DNA of 64,000 bases from contig JAGVXT010000022.1 of NCBI GenBank assembly GCA_018303655.1, positions 2,633-66,632 on the forward strand, read 5' to 3'. Shown here one piece after another: positions 9,666 to 56,320 of this stretch. Under the pieces are notes generated by a model. The model was not told where the DNA came from. It did no database searches and was given only the letters and a program-made list of their open reading frames with translations. The position numbers and the translations under genes were made by a program. This stretch comes from Candidatus Woesearchaeota archaeon. GTDB taxonomy: Archaea; Nanobdellota; Nanobdellia; Woesearchaeales; GW2011-AR4. Within the stretch, counting starts at the first letter, position 1. Each line of letters begins with the position of its first letter.

Positions 9666-9675
9666 AATATTAAAT

Positions 9676-36956: not shown

Positions 36957-37916
36957 ATGAAGAATGCCCTAATCACAGGCGCCACCGGATTTATAGGCGC
37001 GAATCTGGCAAGGGAATTAGCCAGCAGGAAGTTTAATGTTAATGTTTTAACACGGCACACTTCAAATTTATGGAGGCTTTCTGACATTAAGGATAAAATT
37101 AGAGCGCATAATGCTGATATTTTGGATGCTGACAAGCTGTCTGATGTTGTGCACGGCATCAAGCCTGATTATATATTCCACCTTGCCGCATACGGCGCTT
37201 ACCCGCGCATTGAAACTGACAAAAAAGCTATTCTTGAGACTAACATGATTGGCACGTATAACCTGCTTAAAGCTACCCTGGATATTCCGTACAGATGCTT
37301 CATAAATACCGGAAGCTCGTCTGAATACGGCACAAAAAACAAGGCAATGAAAGAGTCCGATGCCCCGGAGCCAAATACATTTTATGGCGCAGCCAAAGCA
37401 GCTGCAACAATGCTCTGCCAGAACTTTGCAAGGCAATACAAAAAGCCAATTATAACATTAAGGCCCTTTTCTGCTTATGGCTATTATGAAGAGCCATTTA
37501 GGTTAATACCTGATGTGATAATCAAATGCATCAACCAAAAAGACGTTCACTTGACAAGCGGCGGGCAGAAGCGGGATTTTGTTTTCATTGAAGACGTGAT
37601 TGATGCATACATGAAAGCGATTGAAAGGCCATCATCCGGGCTTGTGCTGAATGTAGGCTCCGGCTCTGATGTTTCTGTCAAGGAAGTTGCCAGCCTAATT
37701 CATAGGTTAATTAAATCAAAAAATAAGCTGCTCTTTGGCAAAAAGAGAAAAGAGCAATTCGAAACTGACATTTGCTGGAAAGCAGACACAGCAGCGATTA
37801 AAAAAGCGCTCAACTGGAAGGCTGAAACAAGCTTAATTTCAGGCTTAAAGAAGACAATCGAATGGTTCAGTCAGAATATGGAGCTTTATGGGAAAAAAAA
37901 GCAAGGAAATAATTAG
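36957..37916 (+). CDS. NAD-dependent sugar epimerase/reductase (extended SDR)
   Basis: ALITGATGFIGANLAREL, GSSSEYG and YGAAKAAA (YxxxK). Convergent with rfbH. Confidence 0.75.
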   Translation: MKNALITGATGFIGANLARELASRKFNVNVLTRHTSNLWRLSDIKDKIRAHNADILDADKLSDVVHGIKPDYIFHLAAYGAYPRIETDKKAILETNMIGTYNLLKATLDIPYRCFINTGSSSEYGTKNKAMKESDAPEPNTFYGAAKAAATMLCQNFARQYKKPIITLRPFSAYGYYEEPFRLIPDVIIKCINQKDVHLTSGGQKRDFVFIEDVIDAYMKAIERPSSGLVLNVGSGSDVSVKEVASLIHRLIKSKNKLLFGKKRKEQFETDICWKADTAAIKKALNWKAETSLISGLKKTIEWFSQNMELYGKKKQGNN

Positions 37917-39238
37917 CCATATTTCCGGAAAAATTCGTCAAAAGATTCCAGCATGAACTTTAATTTCTCCTGCGTTATTCCAGGATACACGCCGACAAAA
38001 AATGTATCGCGCATGACCTTGTCGGTGTTGGCAAGAGAGCCCCTGATTTCTTTGTCTATGTCGATATAAGCCGGTTGCTTCAGTATATTTCCTGCAAACA
38101 CCATCCTGGTTTCAATTTTCCTTGATTCCAGAAATGAGGTGATGTCCTGCCTGGTAAATCCACAATCATCCTTCAAGGTTATTGTGAACGCAAACCATGA
38201 CGGGTTTGCTTTGTTGTGCCATATGGGAAGAATTATCTTGTCTTCATATTTCTTTAGGTGGCTGTATATTGCTTTGAAATTGTCCCTTCTTTTTTTCACA
38301 AATTCCGGAAGCTTCTTCAGCTGCTCAATGCCTATTGCAGCCTGGAGATCAAGAACTTTTAGATTGTATCCTATCTCAGAATAGATGTATTTGTGGTCAT
38401 AGCCTTCAGGCAAATCTCCCAGATTCCATCCAAACCTTTTGTTGCATGTGTTTGAGAGTCCGGGCAAACACCAGCAATCCCTGCCCCATTCCCTGATTGA
38501 TTTCAAAATCTTGGCAGTCATTCCGTCTTGGGTTAAAACAGCGCCTCCTTCCCCCATTGTAATATGATGCGCAGGGTAAAAGCTTACAGTGCCAACATCT
38601 CCAAAAGTTCCGACATTTTTATTGCCAAAAGTTCCGCCGATTGCATCGCAGGTGTCCTCCATCAGCACAAGGCTATGATCTTCCTTCAAGTCCATCAAAA
38701 GGTCCATGTTGTTTGGGTTGCCTAAAGTATGGGGAATAACCATTGCTTTGATGTCGCTGCTAACAGCCTCTTTCAGAGCCTCTTCGCTTATGTTGCAAGT
38801 TCCTACATCAATGTCCACAAACACGGGCTTTAGGCTGTTCTGTATTATCGGCGCTAATGTTGTAGGGAAGGTAGTTGCTGGTGTTATCACCTTGTCACCG
38901 TTTTTTAATGGGCTGGGCATTCTTTTTGATTTAAGGGCAGTAACCGCAATCAAATTTGCGGATGAGCCTGAATTGGCAAGCACGGAAAACCTTGAGCCAA
39001 GCGCGGCAGCAAACTCCCTTTCAAATTTCACTCCTTTATCGCCATATGTAAGTGTAAAGTCAAGAAGATTGTCCACTGCCTCAATCATCTCATGCTCGTC
39101 AAAAACCCTTCCGGCATAATTTAGCTTGTCAATGCCAGGCTTGAATTCCTTATTTTCAAATTTAACATGATAAAGCTTTTTTACAAGCTCTTTTATCCTG
39201 TCCCTTATGGCATCTTCTGGCTCGTTCAATTTTTGCAC
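37913..39238 (-). CDS. rfbH: CDP-6-deoxy-D-xylo-4-hexulose-3-dehydrase (E1, RfbH/DdhC-like, PMP-dependent)
   Basis: DegT/DnrJ/EryC1 fold of about 440 aa with the long RfbH N-terminus. SFYPAHHITMGEGG carries His in place of the aminotransferase Lys, as in E1/ColD dehydrases. Confidence 0.8.
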   Translation of the reverse strand: MQKLNEPEDAIRDRIKELVKKLYHVKFENKEFKPGIDKLNYAGRVFDEHEMIEAVDNLLDFTLTYGDKGVKFEREFAAALGSRFSVLANSGSSANLIAVTALKSKRMPSPLKNGDKVITPATTFPTTLAPIIQNSLKPVFVDIDVGTCNISEEALKEAVSSDIKAMVIPHTLGNPNNMDLLMDLKEDHSLVLMEDTCDAIGGTFGNKNVGTFGDVGTVSFYPAHHITMGEGGAVLTQDGMTAKILKSIREWGRDCWCLPGLSNTCNKRFGWNLGDLPEGYDHKYIYSEIGYNLKVLDLQAAIGIEQLKKLPEFVKKRRDNFKAIYSHLKKYEDKIILPIWHNKANPSWFAFTITLKDDCGFTRQDITSFLESRKIETRMVFAGNILKQPAYIDIDKEIRGSLANTDKVMRDTFFVGVYPGITQEKLKFMLESFDEFFRKYG

Positions 39239-39311
39239 CCCGCTTTAAATTAATTATGCAACCAAATATTCGCCGAATATATTTAAATGTTTTCACCAAT
39301 AAACACAGCTT

Positions 39312-40298
39312 CTAATTATGCTTAAAGAACTCCTTATACCAGCTGATGGTCTTTTTCAGGCCATCATCAATCTGGGTGCCTGCTTTCCATCCAAGCATTT
39401 TGCTGGCTTTGCCACAATCCAGATACTGCTTCTTTATCTCATTTTTTGCCTCTGCAAGAATCTTCGGCTTCATCTTTGAATCGGAAATTTTAAGTATCTT
39501 ATTGACCAGCTCAATCACGCTCATCGGATTTTCAGGGCCAAAATTAAAGGCATTTCCCTGTATCTCTTTTCTATCCAGCGCTTCTGCCAGCGTCAAAAAT
39601 GCATCAACAGTGTCCTCGACATAAAAATAGTCCCTTATGTAGGTTCCGTCGCTTCTTATTACGGGGTTTTCATTTTGCAGTATGGATTTTATTGTGCCGG
39701 GCACAATCCTGCTGAAATTCAAATCTCCTCCCCCATATATGTTGCCGCATCTTGCTATCCCTATAGGCATTTTATAAGTATGCGCATATGCCTGTGCAAT
39801 CAGATCGCAGCAGCTTTTTGAGACATCATACGGATGCAGCCCTGACAAAGGGGAACAATCTTCCTTGTATGGCAGGTTTTTCTGATCGCCATATGCCTTA
39901 TCGCTTGAAGATATAACAATTCTTTTTGCCAATATATTATTTTGCAATGCCTCCAGTAAATTCCATGTTCCCCTGATGTTAGCCTCAAAAGTTGGCAAAG
40001 GGCTTCTGTTGGCAGCCTGGACTATTGCCTGCGCAGCAAGGTGAAAGCAGGTGTCAATCTCGTACTCATTCAATGCCCTCTCAACTGTCCAATAATCTTC
40101 TAAGCTTCCATGGACAATATTGACTTTTTTGATTAAACCCGAATGCTCCAGCTCTGATTTTGGCACATGGTCTCTTTTTAAAATTGTTACATTGGCATTG
40201 TCTTTAAGCAGCCTCTTCACAAGCCAGCTTCCCAATATGCCGGTTGCTCCTGTTACAAATACATTTTTGCCTTTCCAGTACCCAGAATTTTTTTCCAT
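39312..40298 (-). CDS. rfbG: CDP-glucose 4,6-dehydratase
   Basis: [26 protein letters not shown] and YDVSKSC. ATG 40298 (MEKNSGYW) is chosen. The ORF-track start at 40421 would overlap rfbF by 116 nt. Confidence 0.8.
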
Positions 40299-40305
40299 TG
40301 TAGCG

Positions 40306-41094
40306 CTAGCCTTTCCATACTTTCCATGGCGCTTCATTCTTCTGCCATAATTCATTAAGCATGTCAACCTGCTGCTGGATATCCATGCATTGCCAAAAGC
40401 CATTATGCATGTAGGCAACAAACTGCTTGTCTTTTGCCAGCATTTTCAAAGGCTTATTCTCAAGCATGCAGTCATTGTCCATTGTCAAATAATCAAATAT
40501 GTGCTTTTTGAAGATAAAATAGCCGCCGTCAATCCTGCTGCCATGCACAATGTCCCTTTTTGTAAAATCAACCACCATGCCGTTTTGCAGCTGAAGCACA
40601 CCGAATTTTGCCAATGGCGTAACAGCGGTGACCGTTGCTATTTTGCCATGCTTCTTGTGGAACATGGACAGCTTGCTTATGTCAACATCAGAAACCCCAT
40701 CTCCATAAGTCAAAAAGAAGCTGTCTTCATCAATATATTTCTCTATCTTCTTGACCCTTCCGCCTGTGCCCGTGTCCAGGCCGGTATCGGCAAAAGTGAT
40801 GCTCCACTCGTCAGGCTTTTTATTTGAGTGATATTTCACATTTTTTGTTTTTGTGTTGAATGTGACATCAGTCTGATACATATCCAAATTCAGGAAGAAA
40901 TCCTTTATCATCTGCCCTTTGTAGCCCAGGCACAGGACAAAATCTTTTACCCCGTAATGTGAATATATCTTCATTATATGCCACAAAATTGGCATCCCTC
41001 CAACCTCTATCAATGGCTTTGGCTTAAATTCAGTTTCATCCCTTAATCTGGTACCGCGGCCACCGCATAAAATTACAGCTTTCATAAACTTCAT
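40306..41094 (-). CDS. rfbF: Glucose-1-phosphate cytidylyltransferase
   Basis: [44 protein letters not shown] and GFWQCMD. RfbF/DdhA signature. Confidence 0.85.
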
Positions 41095-41192
41095 GACACC
41101 CCCTCGAACATCTTAATTGGCTGGATAACTTAGGCAATCTATTTAAATTTTTTCTATATGCCGGAACAGAAAATAATTCCAGCCAATCATCA

Positions 41193-42269
41193 TTAGAACG
41201 GCCCGCTAAAGCTTTCATCAGGAACATCCAGATGCTTTGGATCTTTTTTCCGTTCGGATTCAAGCAGCTTCTCAACTTCATTTGAAGGCTTGCCAAGCAT
41301 TTCACATACTTTTTGTATTATGTTTATATGCCTAGGATAATAATATCTTGCCAAAGCAGGCGTGGATGGCGTTGGAATGTCCGGCAAGGTAATTCTTTGC
41401 GGAGCAGCGTTCAAAAATTCAAATGCCTTTTCAGACACCCTTGTTATGATCTCTCCTGCAAAACCATTAGTATAATAGCCTGAGTCTATAGCGAGCAGCT
41501 TTCCTGTTTTTTTAATAGAATTTATAATCAACGTGTCATCAAGCGGCTTTAATGTCCTTAAGTCTATAACCTCGGCTGAAATCCCGTATTTTTCAAGAAC
41601 ATTTATGGCTTTTAGGGTTTCTGCAGTCATATAAGATGTAGAGACAATAGTCAAATCTTTGCCAGAAGAAACCATTTTGGCTTTGCCTATTGGAACAGCA
41701 TACAGCTCTTCCGGCACATGCCCCCAGGTGTTATACAGCCAGCGATGCTCAATAAATACAACAGGATTATTGTCCCTTATGCTGGAAATCAGCAGTCCTT
41801 TGGCATCATAAGGAGTAGCTGGCATCACAACCTTCAATCCCGGAATATGCGCGAAAATTGCCTGAAGATTCTGGGAATGCTGCGCACCCTGGCCCCATCC
41901 CATGCCTATTATAGCCCTGAAAACCAAAGGCACATTTGCTTTGCCCCCAAACATGTAATGCCATTTGGCAGCGTTGTTCACAATCTGGTCAAACGCCAGC
42001 AAAAGAAAATCAAGCCTTAAATGAACCATGATTGGCCGCATCCCCATTAATGCAGCGCCAATGCAAACCCCGCTCATGCCGTTTTCAGACAAAGGCATGT
42101 CCATGACCCTATTCCCGTATTTTTCTGCCAATCCTTTGGTTGTTCCAAAAACGGATTTGATGTCAGGCACCCCTTCTCCAATCACAAACACAGATGGATC
42201 ATCTTCCATACTCTGGTCTATCGCTTCCCTTATCGCTTCACCATACGTAATTTTACGCATATTTGGCAT
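41193..42269 (-). CDS. Thiamine-diphosphate-dependent 2-oxoacid dehydrogenase E1 component, beta subunit-like
   Basis: ITYGEAIREAI, FVIGEGV, DMPLSENGMSGVCIGAALMGMRPI and HSQN. Transketolase pyrimidine-binding plus C-terminal domain. Confidence 0.8.
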   Translation of the reverse strand: MPNMRKITYGEAIREAIDQSMEDDPSVFVIGEGVPDIKSVFGTTKGLAEKYGNRVMDMPLSENGMSGVCIGAALMGMRPIMVHLRLDFLLLAFDQIVNNAAKWHYMFGGKANVPLVFRAIIGMGWGQGAQHSQNLQAIFAHIPGLKVVMPATPYDAKGLLISSIRDNNPVVFIEHRWLYNTWGHVPEELYAVPIGKAKMVSSGKDLTIVSTSYMTAETLKAINVLEKYGISAEVIDLRTLKPLDDTLIINSIKKTGKLLAIDSGYYTNGFAGEIITRVSEKAFEFLNAAPQRITLPDIPTPSTPALARYYYPRHINIIQKVCEMLGKPSNEVEKLLESERKKDPKHLDVPDESFSGPF

Positions 42270-42287
42270 AGTTTTTCACATTAAATT

Positions 42288-43301
42288 TTATTCAGCATAA
42301 ACATGCTTTGAGAGGCTTTCTTTTTCAGGAAAAGGGCTGTTCTTTGCGAATTTCACGGCATTGTTTACCTTATCCAGTATTTCAAGCTCGATTTTTTCAA
42401 GCAAATCATTTCCTATTATTTTTTCTTTAATCATTTTTTCCTTAAGCATTTTTATAGGGTCTTTTTTTTTCCATTCAATGACCTCTTCTTCTGTCCTGTA
42501 ACCCAGATTAACATCATCATTGGGTCCGCAGTGCTCCAGCCACCTGTACGTCATGCATTCTATCAGCACAGGGCCTTTGCCGGATTTGATGTGCCTGAGC
42601 GCTTCTTTAGCTGCTTCGCATACTTTCAGTACATCATTGCCATCTGCTTGGCAAGCAAGAATATCATGCCCCTGGGCTATTTTGAATATTTCCCTTTGCG
42701 GCTGGCGGTCTTTCAAAGGGGTAAGGACAGAATAGAGATTATTCTCGCATATGAAAAGAACATTCAGCTTGTGCAATGAAGAAAAATTTACAGTCTCGCT
42801 GAAAACACCTTCTTCCACAGCAGAGTCGCCAAAGAAAGCAACTGAAACATTATTCTTATTTTGAAATTTGGAAGCCAATGCAGATCCTGCGGTAAGAGGT
42901 ATGGTGCCTCCAACAATAGGGGTGGCTCCTATAAAATTGGCAGAAAGGTCTATGAGGTGCATTGAGCCTCCCCTGCCTTTTGAGCATCCCTCGGCTTTTC
43001 CATAAAGTTCAGCAAGCATGCGGTTTATATCGCCGCCTTTGGCAATATAATGGCTGTGCGCCCGATGATTGGAAAATACAGTATCTTCTTTAGATAAATT
43101 CATGCAAACTCCGACAGCAACAGCTTCCTGGCCAATGGATAAGTGAACAGGGCATCTCATCTCTCTTTCCGAGTATAATTCAGCAATCTTTTCTTCAACA
43201 CGCCTGATCAACAGCATATTTTTATAAGAATCTATAAGAAAACCAGCATTTGCTCCTTTGCCTGAAATGTCCCCATGAACCACTCCCATTCTGGGCTTCA
43301 A
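42288..43301 (-). CDS. Thiamine-diphosphate-dependent 2-oxoacid dehydrogenase E1 component, alpha subunit-like
   Basis: MLLIRRVEEKI, GQEAVAVG, GGSMH and FFGDSAVEEGVFSETVNFSSLHKLNVLFICENNLYS (the GDG-x-N TPP motif). Confidence 0.8.
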   Translation of the reverse strand: MKPRMGVVHGDISGKGANAGFLIDSYKNMLLIRRVEEKIAELYSEREMRCPVHLSIGQEAVAVGVCMNLSKEDTVFSNHRAHSHYIAKGGDINRMLAELYGKAEGCSKGRGGSMHLIDLSANFIGATPIVGGTIPLTAGSALASKFQNKNNVSVAFFGDSAVEEGVFSETVNFSSLHKLNVLFICENNLYSVLTPLKDRQPQREIFKIAQGHDILACQADGNDVLKVCEAAKEALRHIKSGKGPVLIECMTYRWLEHCGPNDDVNLGYRTEEEVIEWKKKDPIKMLKEKMIKEKIIGNDLLEKIELEILDKVNNAVKFAKNSPFPEKESLSKHVYAE

Positions 43302-43325: not shown

Positions 43326-44024
43326 TTAGTCAAAAAGCCTGTATTTCAGCAAATAAAAGGCAGCCTTTATCCCATCAATCCATGTAATTTTTTTGCCTTG
43401 CTCAAACTTTCTTCCAACAAAATTTATGGGAACCTCATGGATTTTGCAGCCTTTCTTAAGTATTTTTGCCGTGATTTCAGGCTCAAAATCAAAGCGGTTA
43501 GCCTTTAAATTTATGCCCTTAATCACTTCTCTTGTGAATACCTTGTAGCAGGTTTCCATGTCAGTTATCTTTGTACCATATAACAGGTTTGTCAGCAATG
43601 TAAGAAACAAATTGCCAATATAGTGCAGCTTGTACATGCTTTTTGCATTTTTTCTTATGGATTCCAGTCTTGAGCCATAAACAACCTTTGCCTTGTTTTC
43701 CATAATCGGCTTTAATAATTTTGAATAGTCATTGGGATCGTACTCCAAGTCAGCATCCTGGATTATTATCAAATCTCCAGTTGAGTTTTTTATGCCTGTT
43801 CTTATAGCGGCGCCTTTCCCCATATTTTTTTTATGATAGAAGACTTTTAGTGATTTATTTTCCAAATTTTTCAGAATATTCCCCGTATTGTCTGTTGAGA
43901 AGTCATCAACTACAATTATTTCTTTCTTAATATTCCATATTCTTGCCCTTTTTACCCTGCCTATGATTTTTTTTATAGTCTTTTCTTCATTGTAAACAGG
44001 GATTATAACCGAAAGCTTTGCCAT
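43326..44024 (-). CDS. Family 2 glycosyltransferase
   Basis: MAKLSVIIPVYNEEKTI, VVDDFSTDNT and IQDADLEYDP. ATG 44024 is chosen because 44078 would overlap hldC. Confidence 0.8.
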   Translation of the reverse strand: MAKLSVIIPVYNEEKTIKKIIGRVKRARIWNIKKEIIVVDDFSTDNTGNILKNLENKSLKVFYHKKNMGKGAAIRTGIKNSTGDLIIIQDADLEYDPNDYSKLLKPIMENKAKVVYGSRLESIRKNAKSMYKLHYIGNLFLTLLTNLLYGTKITDMETCYKVFTREVIKGINLKANRFDFEPEITAKILKKGCKIHEVPINFVGRKFEQGKKITWIDGIKAAFYLLKYRLFD

Positions 44025-44055
44025 AGCGCAGAAAAACTGTAAAATATTTAAAAAA

Positions 44056-44547
44056 CTATTGATTTCTATAAGCGTCAAGAATCCTGCTTATCAGCCCTGT
44101 TGTGGAGTATCCTTTTTCCACTTTGGCGATTGCAATTTTTCCGTTATTTTTCTCTACAACACCTTTCTCAATAATCTGATGGATTTTATAATCCCCGGCT
44201 TTCACATGAAAATCAGGCTTTATCTTTTCCAGCCATTTTACAGGATCATTTTCATCAAAAAGGAAAACAAAATCAACGCTTTCCAATGCAGCCAGCACAA
44301 AAATTCTTGACTTTTCATCATTAATCGGCCTCTTGTCGCCTTTGTTTATCTTTACAGATTTGTCTGTGTTGACCCCAACAATTAAAAAATCCCCAAGCTT
44401 CTTTGCCTCCTCAAGATATTTAACATGCCCAAGATGGAGAATATCAAAAACGCCGTTTGTTGTCACAATTTTTTTATTTTGTTTTTTTAGTTTATTGACT
44501 ATGGGAATTAATTTTTTTAATGTGATGATTTTTTTATTGATTGTCAT
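44056..44547 (-). CDS. hldC: D-glycero-beta-D-manno-heptose 1-phosphate adenylyltransferase (RfaE domain II type)
   Basis: KIVTTNGVFDILHLGHVKYLEEAKKLGDFLIVGVNTD. Cytidylyltransferase-fold HxGH motif at stand-alone size (163 aa). Confidence 0.8.
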   Translation of the reverse strand: MTINKKIITLKKLIPIVNKLKKQNKKIVTTNGVFDILHLGHVKYLEEAKKLGDFLIVGVNTDKSVKINKGDKRPINDEKSRIFVLAALESVDFVFLFDENDPVKWLEKIKPDFHVKAGDYKIHQIIEKGVVEKNNGKIAIAKVEKGYSTTGLISRILDAYRNQ

Positions 44548-45064
44548 TTTTAACTATCCATTTGGCAGCTTCCATCAAGTCCTTAGCTATGAAATCAGGC
44601 TTGGCCTCTTTTATTGTCTTTTTTCCGTCACCAGTCAATACAAGTATGGATTTGCAGTTCGCATTTTTTCCTAATTCAACATCGGCTTTTTTGTCCCCAA
44701 TGACAAAGGATTTCTTCAAATCTATCCTGAATTTTTTCTCTGCAACCTTTAAAAATTTTGTTTTTGGCTTCCTGCAGCTGCAGTTATCTTCCGGCTTGTG
44801 CGGGCAGTAATATGTTTTTTCTATTTTTATGTTGTGTTTTTTCAATTCAGCTAAAACTTCTTTATTATAATTGAAAAACTCCTTTAGTGTAAAAAAGCCC
44901 TTTCCTATGCCAGACTGATTTGTGACTATGAATATTTTAAAATTTCTTAATAGCTTCAGGCCTTTAACCGCATTTGGCAACAGCTTGAAATCCCCTATTT
45001 TGTGGGCATATCCAATGTCATGCGTGATTGTGCCGTCCCTGTCGATAAAAACAGCTGCTGTCAT
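44534..45064 (-). CDS. gmhB: D-glycero-D-manno-heptose 1,7-bisphosphate phosphatase
   Basis: AVFIDRDGTI, VTNQSGIGKG, CPHKPEDNCSCRKP (Zn loop) and GDKKAD. HAD-IIIA GmhB signature. Confidence 0.85.
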   Translation of the reverse strand: MTAAVFIDRDGTITHDIGYAHKIGDFKLLPNAVKGLKLLRNFKIFIVTNQSGIGKGFFTLKEFFNYNKEVLAELKKHNIKIEKTYYCPHKPEDNCSCRKPKTKFLKVAEKKFRIDLKKSFVIGDKKADVELGKNANCKSILVLTGDGKKTIKEAKPDFIAKDLMEAAKWIVKNDNQ

Positions 45065-46035
45065 AATTCCTCAATTCCCCTTTTGATTTCCTCAATGCTG
45101 ACAGAGGCGGTCCCTATTTTCCCGACTTTTATTCCGGCTGCAATGTTTGCTATTACTGCAGCCTCCTCAAGGCTTGCTCCTGATGCAAGCGCAAGCGCTA
45201 TCGCGGCAACAACAGTGTCGCCTGCGCCTATTAAGCTGTAAACTTCCTTGGCTTTTGCAGGAATATGCACAACCTTTCCGTCTTTCTCGAACAAAGACAT
45301 GCCTTTTTCCCCCCTTGTGATCAAAACATTTGAATTAAGGTATTTCATAAGCTTGGGGCCCATCTCCAATACAGCATCGTCGCTGCCATCCTCAATGCCT
45401 GTCATCTCGCTTGCTTCTGCATTATTTGGAGTAATCAAGGTAGCATTTGAGTAAAGATCCCTGTGCTTTGGCTTTGGATCTACTATCACAGGCTTGTTGC
45501 TGCTCCTTGCCATTTCAATAAGCCTGCCGCACACAGCTTGATTTATAACGCCCTTTGCATAGTCGGAAATAACCACAACATCCACATCTTTGATTGCATT
45601 TTCTAGAAATTTTACCATATCTTTTTCTATATTTTGATGGATATTATCTTTCTTTTCATAGTCAACCCTCAGCAGCTGCTGGCTTCTTCCGACAATTCTC
45701 ACTTTTTGAGTTGTTGGCTTGTCGGCGTCGATAATAATTCCATCTGTGTTGACGCCCATGCCCTTCAATTCCCTGATAAGAATATTTTTTGCTTCGTCAT
45801 TTCCCGCAATGCCTGCCATGTAAACTTTTCCGTTTAGAGCAGATGCATTGCTTGCAACATTGGAAGCGCCACCAGGCGCATATGTTTCTTTTGATACATT
45901 TACAACCTGAACAGGGGCTTCAGGGCTTATCCTTGAGACATCCCCCCAGATGTATTTGTCAAGCATGATGTCGCCTATTACGAGGATTTTTTTATTTTTA
46001 AAATTTTCCAGTATTTTTAACAGCCTTTGCTTCAT
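45061..46035 (-). CDS. hldA: D-glycero-D-manno-heptose 7-phosphate kinase (RfaE domain I type, PfkB family)
   Basis: ILVIGDIMLDKYIWGDVSRISPEAPVQVVNV, GGASNVASN and GAGDTVVA. Confidence 0.8.
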   Translation of the reverse strand: MKQRLLKILENFKNKKILVIGDIMLDKYIWGDVSRISPEAPVQVVNVSKETYAPGGASNVASNASALNGKVYMAGIAGNDEAKNILIRELKGMGVNTDGIIIDADKPTTQKVRIVGRSQQLLRVDYEKKDNIHQNIEKDMVKFLENAIKDVDVVVISDYAKGVINQAVCGRLIEMARSSNKPVIVDPKPKHRDLYSNATLITPNNAEASEMTGIEDGSDDAVLEMGPKLMKYLNSNVLITRGEKGMSLFEKDGKVVHIPAKAKEVYSLIGAGDTVVAAIALALASGASLEEAAVIANIAAGIKVGKIGTASVSIEEIKRGIEEL

Positions 46036-46036
46036 T

Positions 46037-46948
46037 TCAAATCCCCTCCATTACCGCCCTGTGCAGTGTTGGAACTGTTTTTTCATGCTTTTCAATGATT
46101 ATAAATCCTTTTCCCCCCAATGAAGTCGGCCTCTGGACAACATTCTCCCTTGGCCTGTAATGGTCTATCATGTCAAAGTTTGCCGCTGTTATGTTTTCAA
46201 CTTTATAGCCAAGATTTCTTGCGATTGTCAAAGCTTTTAGAAAAACTTCCGGCAGTATTACAGCGCAGCCTATGTTTAATATGACACCGCCTTCCATCCT
46301 GCTTACGCTTTCTGCAAAAATTTTAAAATCTTTATATGAAGTCTTTCCGACAGCAGCGCCGTCGCAGCTGGGATGCTGGTGTATAATGTCAGTTCCGATT
46401 GCAACATGCACAGTAACTGGAATATTTAAGTTGTATGCATTATATAAAATGCTGCATTCCTTGTTTGGAAGATTTAAATCGCTTATTTTCTTTCCAATGG
46501 AATAACCCAAGCCATAATTATTTTCAGCGCCTTCCTTGATTGCCTCATTTAGCATTCTGCCGGTTTCCTCTATCATTCCAAATGTGCCGTATTCAATTGT
46601 CTGCTCAACATATTCTGAAGTTTCTCCAATCAAAGCCAATTCAAAATCATGGATTGGGCCTGCGCCGTTCATTGCAATGTGCTTTATAACCCCTTTTTTC
46701 ATCAGGTCAATTATCAAAAGGCTCATGCCTACCTTGATAACATGGGCTCCCATCATCAGGATAATTTGCTTTTTGTTTTTGTAAGCATTGATTATATGAT
46801 TTGACAATTCATTGAACTCTTTTGTATTTATCAAAACTTTAGAATTTTCAGGCTTGATCAAATCATTCAATTTTACCTTATTTTTCCTTTTTTTTATGGA
46901 GATTGTTTTTATCCTGCTGAAGTCAAGCATTTTTATCACTTTTTCCAT
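46037..46948 (-). CDS. Conserved-looking protein of unknown function embedded in the heptose operon
   Basis: 303 aa and soluble, with MMGAHVIKVGMS, NGAGPIHDFELALIG and HVAIGTDIIHQHP. Only a vague resemblance to the deoxyhypusine-synthase-like Rossmann fold by eye. Ends 1 nt before the hldA start. Confidence 0.4.
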   Translation of the reverse strand: MEKVIKMLDFSRIKTISIKKRKNKVKLNDLIKPENSKVLINTKEFNELSNHIINAYKNKKQIILMMGAHVIKVGMSLLIIDLMKKGVIKHIAMNGAGPIHDFELALIGETSEYVEQTIEYGTFGMIEETGRMLNEAIKEGAENNYGLGYSIGKKISDLNLPNKECSILYNAYNLNIPVTVHVAIGTDIIHQHPSCDGAAVGKTSYKDFKIFAESVSRMEGGVILNIGCAVILPEVFLKALTIARNLGYKVENITAANFDMIDHYRPRENVVQRPTSLGGKGFIIIEKHEKTVPTLHRAVMEGI

Positions 46949-47187
46949 TTTTGTAATATAAGCATAAAAATAATTATGGCGATAAATATAATCGCGGTTA
47001 TTATTATCAACAATTTTTTTCTTAATAATAGAGATGTTATCAGCAATAATATATCAATGATTAGAATCAAATCTAGGTAAAAAATAGTTTTACCCTTTTC
47101 GTACGAGTCGACTAAAAATCCAACTTCTTTCCAAACCATTTTATTAAAAAATCTATCTTTTTTATTTTCCAAACAATTCTTTTTCAA
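46936..47187 (-). CDS. Small membrane protein
   Basis: 83 aa with two hydrophobic segments. Overlaps both neighbours in the same-strand gene string. Confidence 0.35.
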   Translation of the reverse strand: MKKNCLENKKDRFFNKMVWKEVGFLVDSYEKGKTIFYLDLILIIDILLLITSLLLRKKLLIIITAIIFIAIIIFMLILQKWKK

Positions 47188-47728
47188 CTAATTCACAAAT
47201 AATATGTCCTGCTAGCATGTAACCCTCCTGAATTCTTGGAGTATCATTGGAGGGTACATTTAAACAAATATCTACTTTATTTTTCAATACTCCCCCACTT
47301 TTGCCTGTAAATGCAACAGTGATTCCTCCTAACTCTTTGGCTTTCTCTATTCCTTTAATTACATTCTTTGAATTACCACTTGTGCTAATTCCTATTACAA
47401 TGTCTCCTTTTTTTACAAATCCCTCAACCTGTTTTGCAAACACATCTTCATAATCATAATCATTTCCTATAGCAGTTAAGCTTACATTATCAGTCAAAGC
47501 TATTGCAGGAAGAGATTTTCTGTTGAAATAATAACGAGATACAAACTCAGTTGCTAGATGCATACTATCAGAACAGCTGCCGCCATTACCAAATAAAATA
47601 ACTTTGCCATCATGTTTATAGCAATGTATAATCGTTTCCGCTATTTTTTGTACCGTTTCTTTGCTCCCTGATAGTCTCTCTATTGCTTCTTTATGTTCAT
47701 TTATTCTTTTTAGTATTAAATCTTCCAT
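47162..47728 (-). CDS. gmhA: Phosphoheptose (sedoheptulose-7-phosphate) isomerase
   Basis: SIS domain with GKVILFGNGGSCSDSMHLATEFVSRY and GISTSGNS. MEDLILKRINEH at 47728 matches the usual GmhA N-terminus. Confidence 0.85.
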   Translation of the reverse strand: MEDLILKRINEHKEAIERLSGSKETVQKIAETIIHCYKHDGKVILFGNGGSCSDSMHLATEFVSRYYFNRKSLPAIALTDNVSLTAIGNDYDYEDVFAKQVEGFVKKGDIVIGISTSGNSKNVIKGIEKAKELGGITVAFTGKSGGVLKNKVDICLNVPSNDTPRIQEGYMLAGHIICELVEKELFGK

Positions 47729-48254
47729 TTTTAATGTCCTCCAATATTTTATCAACATTGGCTTTTGGCTTTATGATTATAAACTTTAAGTTATTCTTCC
47801 TATACACTTCTAATTTTCCTTTCCAATCTTCTTCTGTTTCCTTACGCATGCCATCTACTTCTATAAAAACATCATTAACTAAGAAGTCTGCATATTTTGT
47901 GGAATTTGGTATGTGTGGATGTATGATGTGTCTCAAGTTATGCTCTGTTAATTTCTCGTCAACCCACAATTCCAGAGACGAATAACACAAGTGACCATCT
48001 GAAACGGTAGAATAAGTTCCGAAGCCATAAGTTCCGCTGTTTACCCACGGTTCCATATATTTTCTTGCTAATTCAGGATGATTTTTAATCCACTCTTTCT
48101 TCTTTTGACTTATTCTTTGTCTAATTGTTTTTAGGCTTACCGTAGCCGACCTTTGAGTTTCAAAGGGAAAAACATAATGAGCGAAAAAATCACATTCTAG
48201 GTGATTAGTAAGTTTAAATACTTTGTCCGCAGATGTCCAGTGGTATGCTAACAT
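47697..48254 (-). CDS. PD-(D/E)xK (Vsr/DUF559-like) nuclease-fold protein
   Basis: SSLELWVDEKL...YADFLVNDVFIEVDGM fits the S-x-x-E ... D-F ... (I/V)E(V)DG core of DUF559/Vsr-like endonucleases. Its 3' end overlaps the gmhA start by 32 nt. Confidence 0.4.
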   Translation of the reverse strand: MLAYHWTSADKVFKLTNHLECDFFAHYVFPFETQRSATVSLKTIRQRISQKKKEWIKNHPELARKYMEPWVNSGTYGFGTYSTVSDGHLCYSSLELWVDEKLTEHNLRHIIHPHIPNSTKYADFLVNDVFIEVDGMRKETEEDWKGKLEVYRKNNLKFIIIKPKANVDKILEDIKNGRFNTKKNK

Positions 48255-48297: not shown

Positions 48298-49050
48298 ATG
48301 AGCAAGGCAAAAATTGCAATATCCCTGGACAATTCGCTGTTAAAGCTAGTTGATTCCAAAGTAGACGGCTCTGTGATGAGAAGCAGATCGCAGGCAATAG
48401 AATACTTTTTAAAAAAAGGGCTTCAGGAGCAATCAGTCAATACTGCTGTACTGCTGCTTAAGGGCGAGCATCAGGCAGCTGCATTGAAGAAAATCAAGGG
48501 CGTTTCATTAATAAGGCACCAAATTGATTTCTTTTCGAAATACGGCATAAAAACAATATACATCATAACGCAGCACACTAAAAATATGAATTTGCTTCTT
48601 GATGAAGTCTCCAATTCCAAAATTAATGTTGAAATTGCTGAAAAACAGGCAAAGGGGAATGCAGATGCATTGTATGCTGTAAGGGATAAGATAAGCAACA
48701 GCTTTGTTGTGATGTCCGGCGACACTTACAATAATTTTGACCTGCTTAAAATGATAAAAAAGCACATGGAATCAGAAAAGCTGGCAACAATGGGCTTAAT
48801 GACAAGAGAAAAAACAAGCAACTACGGCACGGCAATCCTTGACGGTGACTTAATTGTTGATTTCCAGGAAAAGCCAAAGCACTACTCCACAAATATAGTC
48901 AATGCCGGAATCTATGTCATTAAGCCCGAGGCGTTTGAGCTTTTTGATAATGCAAACAGCCTGGAAAAAGACCTATTCCCGAAATTGGCAAGAATGAAGC
49001 AGCTGATTGGATTTTTTACATATGGGGAATATGTACATGTTGGAATTTGA
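48298..49050 (+). CDS. Ribbon-helix-helix domain fused to a sugar-nucleotidyltransferase-like domain lacking the G-rich loop
   Basis: N-terminus KIAISLDNSLLKLVDSKV...RSRSQAIEYFLKKGL is CopG/NikR-type RHH. The rest (GNADALYAV, VMSGDTYNNFDL, YGTAILDG..VDFQEKP, NAGIYVIKPE) is RmlA-like, but the GxGxR motif is replaced by LLLKGEHQ. Confidence 0.6.
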   Translation: MSKAKIAISLDNSLLKLVDSKVDGSVMRSRSQAIEYFLKKGLQEQSVNTAVLLLKGEHQAAALKKIKGVSLIRHQIDFFSKYGIKTIYIITQHTKNMNLLLDEVSNSKINVEIAEKQAKGNADALYAVRDKISNSFVVMSGDTYNNFDLLKMIKKHMESEKLATMGLMTREKTSNYGTAILDGDLIVDFQEKPKHYSTNIVNAGIYVIKPEAFELFDNANSLEKDLFPKLARMKQLIGFFTYGEYVHVGI

Positions 49051-53752: not shown

Positions 53753-54148
53753 TCAGTCAACTTCAATCACAACAGCAAATGCTATAGCCTTATCCCCGCA
53801 ATGCGATAAACTGAGGTGTACCTGCAAATTACGAAAATCTATGTCATTAATTGTTGCTATTGGAACTCCCTTTTCATTATTAAATATTTCTAATGCCTTG
53901 TAATCCAGACTTGCTTTGCCCATGCTGCTTAACGCCTTAACAATTGCTTCCTTGCCAGCATATCTTGCAGCCAGACAGGAAGCATGCACTTCCTTTGAAA
54001 AGCAATAGTCCAGCTCATTTTTTGTGAAAACCTTATTCAAAAATATATCATGATCTGTGTGATTAAGCTTTCTGAACCTGCCTATAGATTCAATGTCTGT
54101 GCCAATTGCAAAATTCTTAATCTCCATCATATTAAACCAATTTTTCAA
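53753..54148 (-). CDS. acpS: Holo-[acyl-carrier-protein] synthase (4'-phosphopantetheinyl transferase, AcpS type)
   Basis: FAIGTDIESIGRF, FTKNELDYC, LAARYAGKEAIVKAL and LSLSHCGDKAIAFAV. The start may be Met8 (54127). Confidence 0.75.
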   Translation of the reverse strand: MKNWFNMMEIKNFAIGTDIESIGRFRKLNHTDHDIFLNKVFTKNELDYCFSKEVHASCLAARYAGKEAIVKALSSMGKASLDYKALEIFNNEKGVPIATINDIDFRNLQVHLSLSHCGDKAIAFAVVIEVD

Positions 54149-55286
54149 CTTCTTTCAAAACATCGTCAATGCTGATGTTTTTCATGCATTTCTGGTAGTC
54201 ATTGCTGTTTCTTGGGTATAAACAATCCGGAACCTGGCCTTTGTGCACATTAATGCACGGGCTGAACTCGCAATTGTAGCCTTTGTACAATCCAATGTTT
54301 CCTTTTCCATAGGGTCCAAACCTTACCGGCAGATTAGGCCCAAACAACCCAAGAGTTTTAATTCCCTGGGCAGCTGCAACATGCATAGGCCCTGAATCAT
54401 TGCCGATGAAAAGCTTGCATTTGCTGATCAAATAGAACAGCTGGTTTAATGCCACCTTTCCGGCTGCATTTATTGTCTTGCCTTTTTTGTCCATTTTTTT
54501 TTGTATATTATCTATTGCTTCATTTTCATTTAAAGCGCCGACGAAAATAATTTTTACATCGTGCTTGGCTATTATCTCATCGCAAAGCTCAGCGTACTTG
54601 TCATAAGGCCACATTCTTGCTTTTGCGGACTCGGCAGCGCCAGGGGCAACGCAGGCAACAAAATCATTGCTTTTTATTCCGTTATCCTTTAAAAACTTAT
54701 CAACAAGATTCCTGTCGCTCTTGGAGAAATTTAATCTTGGCAATTTCTCAAAGTTGTAAACTATCCCCAAGGACCTCACTAAATCAAGAAATGTCTGCGC
54801 AGCATGCTGCCGGTCGTTGTATTTAATTTTTGCATCATACAATTTTGCCCTTGAATTGTGGGAATAGCCAATAATTCTTCTTCCTGCAAAAAATGAGATT
54901 ATCGCTGAAATATTCAGGTATTCCTCCATGTCTATGACCAAATCATATTTTTTAACATTCTTTAAGACAAACCCGAGAATTGACAGAGGATTCAATTTTA
55001 TTGTAATTATTCTGCTGATGTTTTTATTGCTGAAATAAACATCCTTGTTCCTTGATGTTGCCAGCACATTTACCTCTGCATTTGGAAAATCCTTTCTCAG
55101 CGCTTCAATAGAAGGCAAGGTCAAAACAGTTTCCCCTATCCCCCAAAGCTGCACAACCAGGATTTTATCAATTTTCAGCTTATTGCCATTTTTTTTTGCC
55201 TTGAATAAGCCAAGAAAATTGCACACAAAATTCCCGATATATCTGTCAATAAATTTGATTATGGCTACCATAGCCCGGAGTAACAA
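54132..55286 (-). CDS. Family 9 glycosyltransferase (heptosyltransferase-like)
   Basis: ILVVQLWGIGETVLTLPSIEALRKDFP, APGAAESAKARMWP and FIGNDSGPMHVAAAQG. Confidence 0.75.
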   Translation of the reverse strand: MLLRAMVAIIKFIDRYIGNFVCNFLGLFKAKKNGNKLKIDKILVVQLWGIGETVLTLPSIEALRKDFPNAEVNVLATSRNKDVYFSNKNISRIITIKLNPLSILGFVLKNVKKYDLVIDMEEYLNISAIISFFAGRRIIGYSHNSRAKLYDAKIKYNDRQHAAQTFLDLVRSLGIVYNFEKLPRLNFSKSDRNLVDKFLKDNGIKSNDFVACVAPGAAESAKARMWPYDKYAELCDEIIAKHDVKIIFVGALNENEAIDNIQKKMDKKGKTINAAGKVALNQLFYLISKCKLFIGNDSGPMHVAAAQGIKTLGLFGPNLPVRFGPYGKGNIGLYKGYNCEFSPCINVHKGQVPDCLYPRNSNDYQKCMKNISIDDVLKEVEKLV

Positions 55287-55651: not shown

Positions 55652-56320
55652 TTACCTATTGTTGAACAATTTCCACCAAACCATGTTCAGGACTATTTTT
55701 ATGCCGTCTATTATTGTCGTGCCCTTGTACTTGTCGGAGTATATTGTTTGTATGGGAATCTGCACGTATTTTAAACTTTGCTTTCCTGCCCTTGATATCA
55801 TTTCGGACTCCATTGAATAGTCTGGAGCATTCCACCTTATCCTCTTGTATGCCTCTTTTGAAAAAGCGCGGAATCCGCATTGGGTGTCATTCAACCCGAT
55901 TCCATACAAAACTTTCACAACATTGGATATAAACAAGTTTCCCAGGCGAAGCACCAAGGGCATTTTGCTGCTTGCTTTCCTGTAGCTGAAAACTATGTCA
56001 TATTTTTGCAATTTCTCGATAAAGCGCGGTATGTCTTCAGGCCTGTGCTGGGAATCAGCGTCCAGAACAATAGCATATCCTGCGCCGTTTTTGAAGGCAT
56101 AATCGCATCCGGTTTTAAGGGCAGCGCCTTTGCCAAGATTTACTATATGGACAAGCACAACAGCGCCTGATTTTTCAGCAAGCTTCTTTGTATTGTCTGT
56201 GCTGCCGTCATCAACAATCACAACATTGCCTACATATTTCTTAGTCTTCTTTATTACATCTGCAATGTTCTTCTGCTCATTGCGGGCAGGTATCACAGCC
56301 CATACATCGCTTATTTTCAT
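55652..56320 (-). CDS. Family 2 glycosyltransferase (polyprenol-phosphate sugar synthase-like)
   Basis: WAVIPARNEQKNI, VIVDDGSTDNT, VLDADSQHRP and NDTQCGFRAF. Confidence 0.8.
   Translation of the reverse strand: MKISDVWAVIPARNEQKNIADVIKKTKKYVGNVVIVDDGSTDNTKKLAEKSGAVVLVHIVNLGKGAALKTGCDYAFKNGAGYAIVLDADSQHRPEDIPRFIEKLQKYDIVFSYRKASSKMPLVLRLGNLFISNVVKVLYGIGLNDTQCGFRAFSKEAYKRIRWNAPDYSMESEMISRAGKQSLKYVQIPIQTIYSDKYKGTTIIDGIKIVLNMVWWKLFNNR

Follow-up and report, generated by a model that had tools for sequence, protein, structure and literature searches.

The stretch of DNA analyzed here (64,000 nucleotides, referred to as the window) contains genes for GmhA, HldA, GmhB, and HldC, together with a fifth gene, in a co-directional, overlapping set on the minus strand (44056-47758). 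The fifth gene, which encodes a protein of the GSU2086 family, lies between gmhA and hldA, in the position held by a gene for an HldD-like epimerase in some related genomes. Based on comparative sequence analysis, we estimate a probability of about 70% that this is a native ADP-heptose operon in which the GSU2086-family protein takes the role of HldD and whose product is incorporated into a surface glycan by GT9 transferases and the oligosaccharyltransferase AglB. The operon genes, scored against NCBIfam and Pfam models, and the glycosylation genes of the window are as follows:

22969-23979, minus strand: GT9a, heptosyltransferase-like, the more divergent of two (PF01075, 56.5 bits; TIGR02201, 67.7 bits)
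43326-44078, minus strand: GT2, AglJ-like or polyprenyl-phosphate sugar synthase-like (PF00535, 129.7 bits; TIGR04182, 125.7 bits)
44056-44547, minus strand: hldC, heptose-1-phosphate adenylyltransferase (TIGR02199, 188.5 bits versus a cut-off of 181.5)
44534-45064, minus strand: gmhB, heptose-1,7-bisphosphate 7-phosphatase, HAD-IIIA with Zn loop (NF006506, 159 bits versus a cut-off of 178; TIGR01656, 132 bits)
45061-46035, minus strand: hldA, PfkB-type kinase (TIGR02198, 378.7 bits versus a cut-off of 345)
46037-46948, minus strand: GSU2086-family gene, 303 amino acids, between gmhA and hldA (NF052581, 423 bits versus a cut-off of 250)
47162-47758, minus strand: gmhA, sedoheptulose-7-phosphate isomerase, SIS domain (TIGR00441, 182 bits versus a cut-off of 209; PF13580, 92.9 bits)
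48298-49050, plus strand: ribbon-helix-helix plus NTP-transferase-like protein (PF00483, 80 bits over residues 64 to 217)
54132-55286, minus strand: GT9b, heptosyltransferase-like (PF01075, 128.8 bits; TIGR02195, 110.7 bits)
55652-56320, minus strand: GT2, polyprenyl-phosphate sugar synthase-like, PpgS/AglJ-like (NF058614, 134.5 bits; TIGR04182, 97.7 bits)
56321-59479, minus strand: AglB/STT3 oligosaccharyltransferase (PF02516, 117 bits)

The first-pass annotation had assigned GmhA, HldA, GmhB, and HldC correctly, as judged from HMM scores and intact catalytic motifs, but it had overlooked the fifth gene within the same coordinates. HldA and HldC scored over their equivalog cut-offs, and GmhA and GmhB scored under theirs. 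The motifs seen were GNGGS, H..E (HLATE), and Q(8)H (Q167..H175) in GmhA; GDIMLDKY and GAGD in HldA; DRDGT, CPHKPEDNCSC, and GDKKAD in GmhB; and HLGH and GYSTT in HldC. The likely start of gmhA is a Met at 47728, internal to the open reading frame. The gene junctions include overlaps of 4, 14, and 23 nt and one 1-nt gap, and all of the heptose genes are single-copy in the genome and confined to this contig. In the HldC motif VEKGYSTT, position 5 is Tyr instead of Arg. The arginine (STTR5) is given as the mark of CDP/UDP-heptose producers in a commentary on archaeal heptose enzymes (PMC11573728).

As had been noted earlier, HldD is absent: none was found in the 88%-complete genome, in which the best match to TIGR02197 scored 106.5 bits versus a cut-off of 274.6. 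The protein giving this match, an SDR, scored higher as a dTDP-glucose dehydratase and was rejected as HldD. Comparison with related loci revealed that the slot between gmhA and hldA is filled by the GSU2086-family gene in the window and in L008, L013, L014, L019, L020, and L022 and by an HldD-like SDR gene in L006, L009, and L016. An SDR gene is also directly upstream of hldA in L007 and L010, where gmhA was not found beside it. L006 and L007 are from the same family as the genome that contains the window. Orthologues of GT9b and HldA are common to both types of operon, and the two types interleave in the kinase tree.

The same pattern was apparent across genomes. Among the 107 kinase-positive Woesearchaeales, 47 have only HldD, 15 have only the GSU2086-family gene, one has both, and 44 have neither (p = 4.7e-4, kinship ignored). 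The tailoring step is not obligatory, because those 44 genomes have neither gene. HldD was detected in just 2 of 50 GSU2086-bearing genomes, most of them bacterial, and in 251 Desulfobacterota it was present in 6.8% of the GSU2086-positive versus 46.7% of the GSU2086-negative genomes (p = 3e-13, kinship ignored). Both genes were present in 11 Desulfobacterota genomes and in one archaeal genome. The GSU2086-family gene and the HldD-like gene are largely mutually exclusive in one operon slot, and the earlier proposal that the lack of HldD makes ADP-D,D-heptose the product is therefore unsafe. Because the GSU2086-family gene lies in the exact slot of the relatives' HldD, its product probably replaces this epimerase.

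Co-occurrence, linkage, domain fusions, and mutant fitness all suggest that the GSU2086-family gene belongs to the heptose pathway. The gene was found in 16 of 301 Woesearchaeales genomes, all 16 of which have the kinase (p = 3e-8), and 14 of 17 copies are within ca. 1.2 kb of the kinase gene. In bacteria, the commonest adjacency is gmhA directly upstream of the GSU2086-family gene (41 of 80 loci). Fusion partners of the GSU2086 domain are GmhA, HldC, an HldA-like kinase, and the pair of a DUF89 phosphatase and HldC. The Tn-seq fitness defects of Geobacter are alike for hldE (-3.1), GSU2086 (-3.2), and gmhA (-3.7) (PMC5585712).

In Foldseek comparisons with solved structures, the AF2 model of the GSU2086-family protein (pLDDT, 95.7) was closest to deoxyhypusine synthase, the ornithine-cyclodeaminase domain of AgrE, and LOR/SDH (E, 6.5e-9 to 1e-7; TM, 0.5 to 0.6; identity, 11 to 18%). 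The Pfam DS model scored 24.6 bits, under its cut-off of 27. The AgrE domain has been solved in complex with NAD+, and the modeled fold suggests that the GSU2086-family protein may bind NAD. HldD (RfaD/GmhD), the ADP-L-glycero-D-manno-heptose 6-epimerase, belongs to the extended SDRs and binds NADP tightly. It works by transient oxidation and reduction with its bound nicotinamide cofactor, a mechanism it shares with known proteins related in fold to the GSU2086 family. The GSU2086-family protein is a candidate for a heptose tailoring enzyme dependent on NAD or for an analogue of the 6-epimerase. The invariant residues of the family are H100, D101, E103, T110, S111, E112, H181, D207, E234, K238, D259, R265, and H288.

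In the proposed pathway, which is drawn from homology, motifs, and synteny, sedoheptulose-7-phosphate would be supplied by transketolase, which is encoded in the genome; no transaldolase was found there. GmhA would convert this substrate to D-glycero-D-manno-heptose-7-phosphate, HldA would form the beta-1,7-bisphosphate, and GmhB would take off the 7-phosphate. At the HldC step ADP is the expected nucleotide, because HldC lacks the STTR5 arginine. The GSU2086-family protein, with its DHS-like dinucleotide fold, would act on the heptose, most likely through transient NAD-dependent oxidation and reduction, and would do the job of the missing HldD, yielding L-glycero-D-manno-heptose. Cytoplasmic GT9 enzymes would use the heptose to extend a lipid-linked oligosaccharide, from which AglB would transfer the heptose-bearing glycan to surface proteins. 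With regard to the substrate stage, the bacterial linkage to gmhA, the gene for the first enzyme, and the fusions to GmhA are no less compatible with a heptose phosphate than with ADP-heptose as the substrate of the GSU2086-family protein.

The surroundings of the operon are consistent with a role in glycosylation. The GT2 gene at 43326-44078 shares 23 nt with hldC, and a homologue follows hldC in L006, L007, and L013. In L018 and L023, the GT2 nearby is more distantly related (30 to 34% identity). Divergent from the operon is the ribbon-helix-helix/NTP-transferase-like gene, a conserved neighbor and candidate regulator, with orthologues (47 to 74% identity) in the same arrangement in 11 of 20 related loci. 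Orthologues of GT9b (45 to 67% identity) adjoin AglB and GT2 in L006, L009, L010, L013, L018, and L023. AglB, with WWDFG at residue 695, is the sole copy in the genome (a single tblastn match), and the second GT2 gene is immediately downstream of it. The block AglB-GT2-GT9b-RHH/NTP-gmhA-X-hldA-gmhB-hldC, where X is the variable slot, is found again in independent genomes. The PF01075 and PF02516 matches bear out the pair of GT9 genes and the AglB setting reported in the first-pass annotation, and the conserved AglB-GT2-GT9-heptose synteny is still best read as use of heptose in a surface glycan. No report of heptose in archaeal glycans was found in the literature searched.

The enzymes are bacterial in type and the genome is a metagenome-type assembly (37 contigs, 88% complete), as would be expected if the heptose genes had come from bacteria through mis-binning or chimeric assembly, or had been gained horizontally by this genome alone in very recent times. 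However, the GC content of the contig (0.366) is inside the genome range (0.365 to 0.407), and the tetranucleotide profile of the operon segment has a correlation of 0.972 with the remaining genome, at the 72nd percentile of other segments. The contig also bears AglB and a geranylgeranyl-reductase-family gene, and a genus mate has the same gene order, as do many other Woesearchaeales genomes. HldA, in the kinase tree, and likewise the GSU2086-family protein cluster with their counterparts from other Woesearchaeales, and an HldA-type kinase is present in 107 of 301 species of the order. A chimeric insertion, which the first-pass annotation had raised as a concern, is at odds with the native composition and shared gene order, and insertion and recent import are both close to refuted. 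The operon is native and lineage-typical, and the earlier suggestion of horizontal acquisition can stand in an ancient sense only. The archaeal host was confirmed: ribosomal protein L21e was found in the genome, and in control searches this family was positive only in four archaeal controls. The host is a tiny, uncultured archaeon, probably of the Woesearchaeota (DPANN).

Other explanations concern what the fifth enzyme does and what the GT9 enzymes act on. The GSU2086-family protein might not be a 6-epimerase and might instead produce a different isomer or derivative of heptose, or serve with GmhA as an auxiliary isomerase, mutase, or proofreader of heptose phosphate. The frequent gmhA adjacency, the GmhA fusions, and the 44 kinase-positive genomes with neither gene would fit such a role. 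It would leave unexplained the exclusion between GSU2086 and HldD in two distant lineages and the use of the same slot in operons with otherwise orthologous GT9b and HldA, and appears unlikely. The fifth enzyme could also use a cofactor other than NAD(P). Ornithine-cyclodeaminase-type domains are among the nearest folds, and an ornithine cyclodeaminase with nickel-pincer adenine dinucleotide is cited in PMC13524815 (Desguin 2025), but the nickel-insertion gene LarC (PF01969) was not found in this genome, and a nickel-pincer cofactor is very improbable. It is also conceivable, though quite unlikely, that the GT9 enzymes heptosylate an acceptor outside the AglB pathway, such as a membrane glycolipid, or act directly on a surface protein, which for GT9a would be the adjacent giant one. 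GT9a, which shares 24 to 26% identity with GT9b, is convergent with the gene for this giant surface protein (16448-22967), and the acceptors of bacterial GT9 enzymes are lipid A-Kdo cores, which are absent from archaea. Bacterial autotransporter heptosyltransferases act directly on a surface protein. In contrast, at least seven independent genomes have GT9b beside AglB and the polyprenyl-phosphate sugar synthase-like GT2, the pattern expected of a lipid-linked N-glycan pathway.

The closest known system is the bacterial route to ADP-L-glycero-beta-D-manno-heptose in which HldA and HldC are distinct proteins, reportedly described by Kneidinger et al. in 2002 as comprising GmhA, HldA, GmhB, HldC, and HldD. 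The four shared families have the same catalytic motifs, with a PfkB-type kinase (beta-anomer route), an RfaE domain II type adenylyltransferase, and GT9 transferases nearby. However, the host here is an archaeon without LPS, the genes are in an AglB N-glycosylation island, and a GSU2086-family protein stands in place of the SDR epimerase HldD. HldD, which has the same operon position in sister genomes, has an SDR fold, whereas the GSU2086 family has an unrelated DHS-like fold and may act at another stage (on heptose phosphate rather than ADP-heptose). In the gmhA-GSU2086-hldE operon of Geobacter sulfurreducens, GSU2086 (NF052581) is of the same family and likewise lies between gmhA and the kinase gene, but that operon serves LPS core synthesis and has a bifunctional HldE rather than separate HldA and HldC. 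Among solved structures, the closest folds are those of deoxyhypusine synthase and of the ornithine cyclodeaminase domain of the LOR/SDH type (AgrE/ArgZ C-terminal domain, 3c2q); in an HMM alignment, a G-rich loop and an "HD.E" segment are common to AgrE/ArgZ and the GSU2086 family. These relatives function in polyamine or amino-acid metabolism, whereas the GSU2086 family has a sugar-nucleotide context and its own set of invariant residues.

According to two commentaries (PMC11461863, PMC11573728), Tang et al. (2024, Science) showed in vitro activity for archaeal NDP-heptose biosynthetic enzymes, which are homologous to the isomerase, kinase, phosphatase, and nucleotidyltransferase considered here and whose physiological role "remains elusive." On that account archaeal ADP-heptose capacity is already established, functional archaeal enzymes are not new, and the earlier statement that the pathway is uncharacterized in archaea is outdated. 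The genes described here differ in being wired to GT9 transferases and AglB and in an HldC without the STTR5 arginine of CDP/UDP-heptose producers, and neither commentary mentions the fifth gene. The new evidence is the operon slot itself, which holds an HldD-like epimerase gene or a GSU2086-family gene and almost never both.

The heptose genes are arranged head to tail on the minus strand from 47758 to 44056 and are followed by a GT2 glycosyltransferase gene:

47162-47758, minus strand: gmhA (198 aa from 47758; 188 aa from the probable start at 47728)
46037-46948, minus strand: GSU2086-family gene (303 aa)
45061-46035, minus strand: hldA (324 aa)
44534-45064, minus strand: gmhB (176 aa)
44056-44547, minus strand: hldC (163 aa)
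43326-44078, minus strand: GT2 gene downstream of hldC (250 aa)

The first-pass annotation had assigned GmhA, HldA, GmhB, and HldC to this cluster, and the cluster proved real: the correct NCBIfam/Pfam families were the best matches and all of the catalytic motifs were found. It had not mentioned the GSU2086-family gene, which lies between gmhA and hldA within the same interval. The GSU2086-family gene and hldA are separated by 1 nt, and the following junctions overlap by 4, 14, and 23 nt, so the genes from the GSU2086-family gene to the GT2 gene appear to form a single transcription unit. Every heptose gene is present as a single copy in the genome, only on this contig; the genome has one gene for the oligosaccharyltransferase AglB and two GT9 genes.

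HldA and HldC scored above the cut-offs of their families (TIGR02198, 378.7 bits versus 345; TIGR02199, 188.5 bits versus 181.5), with GDIMLDKY at residue 21 and GAGD at residue 270 of HldA and HLGH at residue 38 and GYSTT at residue 146 of HldC. GmhA scored below the equivalog cut-off of TIGR00441 (182 bits versus 209.45). Because its four best matches were nevertheless GmhA models, it is a divergent member of the family rather than an outsider; it matched the SIS fold PF13580 (92.9 bits) and has GNGGS at residue 47, HLATE at residue 57, Q167, and H175. GmhB was also under the cut-offs of NF006506 (159 bits versus 178) and TIGR00213 (127.8 versus 149.6), and it passed the HAD-IIIA subfamily model (102 versus 44.6), with the HAD-IIIA motifs (DxDGT and GDxxxD) and the Cx(H)x..CxC zinc loop all present.

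Two further open reading frames lie near gmhA. An 83-aa frame with a predicted membrane segment (46936-47187, minus strand) occupies the 213 nt that separate gmhA from the GSU2086-family gene and runs into both. It was not supported as a conserved operon member and is possibly no real gene, because gmhA and the GSU2086-family gene abut in the genus mate. A 185-aa frame without a Pfam match (47697-48254, minus strand), between gmhA and a gene resembling RHH proteins and NTP-transferases, had no counterpart in any of 20 related loci and thus looks like a genome-specific insertion; by eye, its C-terminal part resembles Vsr/DUF559-type endonucleases.

Arginine as the fifth residue of the motif (F/L)XXGRSTT (STTR5) is reported to mark enzymes that also make CDP- or UDP-heptose, a rule described as not absolute (PMC11573728). 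The corresponding motif of the window HldC is VEKGYSTT, with Tyr rather than Arg at position 5, and ADP-heptose is therefore the expected nucleotide sugar. The PfkB-type kinase defines the beta-anomer, ADP-type route, and ADP-heptose is most likely what the operon makes. Transketolase is encoded elsewhere in the genome (189 bits; N-terminal subunit at 73049-73819 of contig C36), so pentose phosphates could serve as the source of sedoheptulose-7-phosphate. A search for transaldolase (PF00923) was negative in the genome, which is 88% complete, and the supply would rest on transketolase alone.

The fifth protein matched the GSU2086 family (NF052581) with 423.1 bits versus a curated cut-off of 250, over model positions 2-300 of 301, and is the most conserved protein of the operon (80% identity to the genus mate, versus 58-78% for the other four). 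A full-library search returned 508 GSU2086 cluster representatives at E ≤ 1e-30, some of which are fusion proteins: with HldC or GmhA on either side, with an HldA-like kinase, or with a DUF89 phosphatase plus HldC. In 80 loci of other genomes, gmhA was the gene immediately upstream in 41, and hldA was the one immediately downstream in 15. The gene order in Geobacter sulfurreducens is gmhA (GSU2087), GSU2086, and hldE (GSU2085), and transposon mutants of these genes had fitness defects on electrodes of -3.7, -3.2, and -3.1, respectively (PMC5585712). That transposon table was the only mention of the family found in the literature, and searches for "deoxyhypusine synthase-like" with heptose, or Woesearchaeota with heptose, found nothing relevant. 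A role as a replacement for GmhA was rejected, as both genes are present in the operon and GmhA-GSU2086 fusions exist. Bacterial sequences in the family tree largely track phyla, and most Woesearchaeales copies stand apart from the main bacterial clade, which argues for long residence of the gene and not recent spread. The family was found in 161 of 251 Desulfobacterota genomes (64%) in a phylum-level sample around genome G342; it is a mainstream bacterial gene without a described function.

The first-pass annotation had recognized no HldD, the ADP-glyceromanno-heptose 6-epimerase that makes L,D- from D,D-heptose, and this absence held for the whole 88% complete genome. No protein in it exceeded the TIGR02197 cut-off of 274.6 bits; the best match (106.5 bits) fits dTDP-glucose dehydratase better and looks more like a sugar 4,6-dehydratase. 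An orthologue of the HldD-like SDR of other Woesearchaeales was not found in the genome either (best tblastn match, 28% identical). The possibility that an SDR of the window is a hidden HldD was rejected because all were far under the cut-off and scored better as sugar dehydratases.

In the order Woesearchaeales, the GSU2086 family was detected in 16 of 301 genomes, all 16 of them positive for the HldA-type kinase (p = 3e-8), and 14 of 17 copies were within ~1.2 kb of the kinase gene. The HldD-like SDR (E ≤ 1e-55) was detected in 49 genomes, 48 of them kinase-positive. Among the 107 kinase-positive genomes, 1 had both genes, 15 had only GSU2086, 47 had only HldD, and 44 had neither (one-sided Fisher p = 4.7e-4); the corresponding numbers in the 251 Desulfobacterota genomes were 11, 150, 42, and 48 (p = 3e-13), both sets being raw genome counts with statistics that ignore phylogeny. 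HldD was thus present in 6.8% of GSU2086-positive versus 46.7% of GSU2086-negative Desulfobacterota genomes. It was present in only 2 of 50 GSU2086-bearing, mostly bacterial genomes that included Nitrospirota, Verrucomicrobiota (one metagenome-assembled genome [MAG] labelled Akkermansia muciniphila), Desulfobacterota, Poribacteria, and Omnitrophota. The existence of genomes with neither gene shows that a tailoring step is optional.

The exchange was also apparent at the position between gmhA and hldA in related loci fetched from 19 kinase-positive genomes of the order. A GSU2086-family gene fills this position in the window, in the genus mate (L008), and in loci L013, L014, L019, L020, and L022, and an HldD-like SDR gene does so in L006, L009, and L016. 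In L007 and L010 the SDR gene is directly upstream of hldA, and gmhA was not found beside it. L006 and L007 represent two further genera within the family to which the window belongs, and orthologues of HldA and of the second GT9 gene are common to both operon types, which interleave on the kinase tree. The sole archaeal genome with both genes has them at two separate loci.

Variant arrangements were also seen. Genome G038 has two heptose loci (L015 and L016, on contigs C107 and C133), one with the canonical order gmhA-HldD-hldA-gmhB-hldC and the other with a GmhA-like gene beside a kinase and a GSU2086-family gene that are both divergent (26% identity for the kinase; 34% identity and 296 bits for the GSU2086-family gene); as each tailoring enzyme sits in its own heptose locus, the two probably stay in separate pathways. 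Four Woesearchaeales loci (L011, L012, L017, and L021, from G102, G110, G024, and G190) have a pair of kinase genes, of which one encodes ~500 aa and has an additional domain, together with an enlarged GmhB, and no GmhA was detectable nearby. The GSU2086-family gene is between the two kinases in L011, L012, and L021 and downstream of hldC in L017, an organization that suggests a rewired pathway variant. The Akkermansia-labelled MAG has the order GSU2086-hldA-gmhB (L028), and no HldD was found in its genome at E ≤ 1e-45. Descriptions of A. muciniphila LOS in portions of PMC11436972, PMC13135019, and PMC12527988 include one inner-core heptose and do not give its C-6 configuration (D,D or L,D), which makes this species a convenient cultured test organism.

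The AlphaFold2 model of the fifth protein (pLDDT 95.7, pTM 0.92) was most similar in Foldseek to deoxyhypusine synthases, the C-terminal ornithine cyclodeaminase domain of AgrE/ArgZ (including the AgrE-NAD+ complex 6lrg), and the LOR/SDH protein 3c2q (TM 0.5-0.59, identity 11-18%). A family-profile search of PDB sequences gave weak local matches only (E 0.003-0.1), to ArgZ/AgrE, 3c2q, and one deoxyhypusine synthase, and the deoxyhypusine synthase family PF01916 scored 24.6 bits versus a gathering score of 27. The modeled fold is therefore like that of deoxyhypusine synthase, and the protein is not itself one. Deoxyhypusine synthase and ornithine cyclodeaminase employ a bound nicotinamide cofactor for transient oxidation, and HldD follows the same chemical logic at C-6 of heptose. 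By structural analogy, the fifth protein may bind NAD. Thirteen polar residues (H100, D101, E103, T110, S111, E112, H181, D207, E234, K238, D259, R265, and H288) are invariant in alignments of 38-54 diverse members, a set that looks typical of an enzyme. A nickel-pincer dinucleotide cofactor has recently been reported for an ornithine cyclodeaminase, according to a passage in PMC13524815; such a cofactor was not supported for the fifth enzyme, as no LarC gene was found in the genome.

The fifth enzyme most likely tailors ADP-heptose or a phosphate precursor in place of HldD, probably by 6-epimerization. In view of the tight linkage of GSU2086 to gmhA in bacteria, the enzyme may act at the heptose-phosphate stage or may yield a different product altogether. 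We assign a probability of about 0.4 to the reading that the GSU2086 family is an unrecognized non-SDR heptose 6-epimerase, with a dinucleotide fold of the deoxyhypusine synthase/ornithine cyclodeaminase type and ADP-heptose or heptose phosphate as the substrate. On this 6-epimerase reading, HldD-less lineages (most of the Desulfobacterota sampled, and at least some Nitrospirota and some Verrucomicrobiota, including Akkermansia) would obtain L-glycero-D-manno-heptose mainly through this family. In Woesearchaeota it would supply L,D-heptose to a surface glycan that depends on AglB, which would be the first physiological role for heptose in archaea. The interpretation in the first-pass annotation is thus partly supported. 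Its enzymes, GT9 genes, AglB, and lack of HldD stand, and its D,D-heptose product is unsafe because a GSU2086-family enzyme occupies the HldD slot.

Mis-binning, chimerism, and recent transfer of the heptose genes are very unlikely. The assembly (1.26 Mb, 37 contigs, 88% complete, 0.94% contamination) contained no archaeal SSU rRNA; the domain was assigned from ribosomal protein L21e, a family whose control search matched the four archaeal controls and no other genome, and the names given to near-identical proteins provided the lineage. Near-identical copies of the fifth protein (80-91%) are labelled Candidatus Woesearchaeota or Nanoarchaeota at source. The GC content of the contig is the same as that of the rest of the genome, and the 5-kb segment with the operon is typical in tetranucleotide composition, one of the purity checks proposed with the first-pass annotation (correlation with the genome 0.972, 72nd percentile of segments of the other contigs). 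The kinase occurs in 107 of 301 species of the order (60 of the 107 above the cut-off), and a block of AglB, a GT2 gene resembling polyprenyl-phosphate sugar synthases, the second GT9 gene, the divergent RHH/NTP-transferase-like gene, gmhA-X-hldA-gmhB-hldC (X being the variable gene), and a GT2 gene recurs in independent genomes. In the kinase tree, the window HldA and that of the genus mate fall together, surrounded by kinases from elsewhere in the order and separate from a Verrucomicrobiota/Omnitrophota/Planctomycetota clade that has good support. Together with the single-copy state of the genes, these results argue against recent import; of the horizontal acquisition that had been proposed, a bacterial ancestry, if real, would be old.

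Both GT9 genes noted in the first pass match PF01075, with 56.5 bits (22969-23979) and 128.8 bits (54132-55286) versus a gathering score of 22. Both were under the cut-offs of the LPS-specific equivalog models WaaC, WaaF, and WaaQ, which would be expected if the acceptor is not LPS. Their synteny with AglB and the heptose operon suggests that they use ADP-heptose as the donor. The AglB context was likewise confirmed: the sole copy in the genome (56321-59479; 1,052 aa) has an STT3 domain (PF02516, 117 bits) and WWDFG at residue 695, and it scored far below the cut-off of the archaeosortase-linked subfamily TIGR04154 (50 versus 450). The GT9 enzymes would add heptose to a lipid-linked glycan, which AglB would then transfer to surface proteins. 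Elsewhere, the window forms a single large glycan island that comprises six further GT2 genes, four GT-C genes of the PMT_2 type, and one GT4 gene, as well as a C-methyltransferase, a CDP-dideoxyhexose set with a thiamine-dependent E1 pair, and a carrier-protein acylation cassette. No rRNA, tRNA, or Rfam match was found in the window.

The left end of the contig (contig positions 1-3300, reaching into window positions 1-666, and window 1327-3195) encodes a radical-SAM-like protein, a phosphonopyruvate decarboxylase-like protein (by eye), an iron alcohol dehydrogenase (PF25137), and a membrane protein of the sulfatase family; together these may form a module that decorates the same glycan with a phosphonate or phosphoalcohol. 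Within the contig, tetranucleotide composition is least typical (2nd-8th percentile) at 2369-12368, 17369-22368, and 37369-42368 of the window, the first 13 kb of which have a GC content of 0.31-0.32; parts of the island may have been exchanged more recently than the heptose genes.

Gram-negative bacteria use ADP-heptose as a core building block of their envelopes, and it is also a potent agonist of innate immunity. This locus and its many relatives physically tie the heptose pathway to GT9 transferases and a single AglB, which leads to the hypothesis that heptose is part of a surface glycan, N-linked or otherwise, in DPANN archaea. The very large GSU2086 family accompanies heptose enzymes, both as separate genes and as fusions, and rarely shares a genome with HldD. 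Should it prove to be the missing epimerase or a different tailoring enzyme, the present annotation of LPS core biosynthesis would be wrong for several major bacterial phyla (the gut symbiont Akkermansia among them), hldD presence or absence would be an unreliable predictor of D,D- versus L,D-heptose, and the deoxyhypusine synthase fold would support a new enzyme chemistry.

The pathway itself is already known from archaea. The first-pass remark that no characterization there was known to its author is outdated, as sections of PMC11461863 and PMC11573728 describe archaeal NDP-heptose enzymes as functional (Tang et al. 2024); they also call the role of heptose in archaea elusive and suggest neighboring genes as the place to look. 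Compared with that known pathway, the operon has a new form, with a GSU2086-family enzyme where HldD would be encoded, and the quantitative exclusivity of HldD and GSU2086 in two lineages and their in-place swap within one archaeal family are new here.
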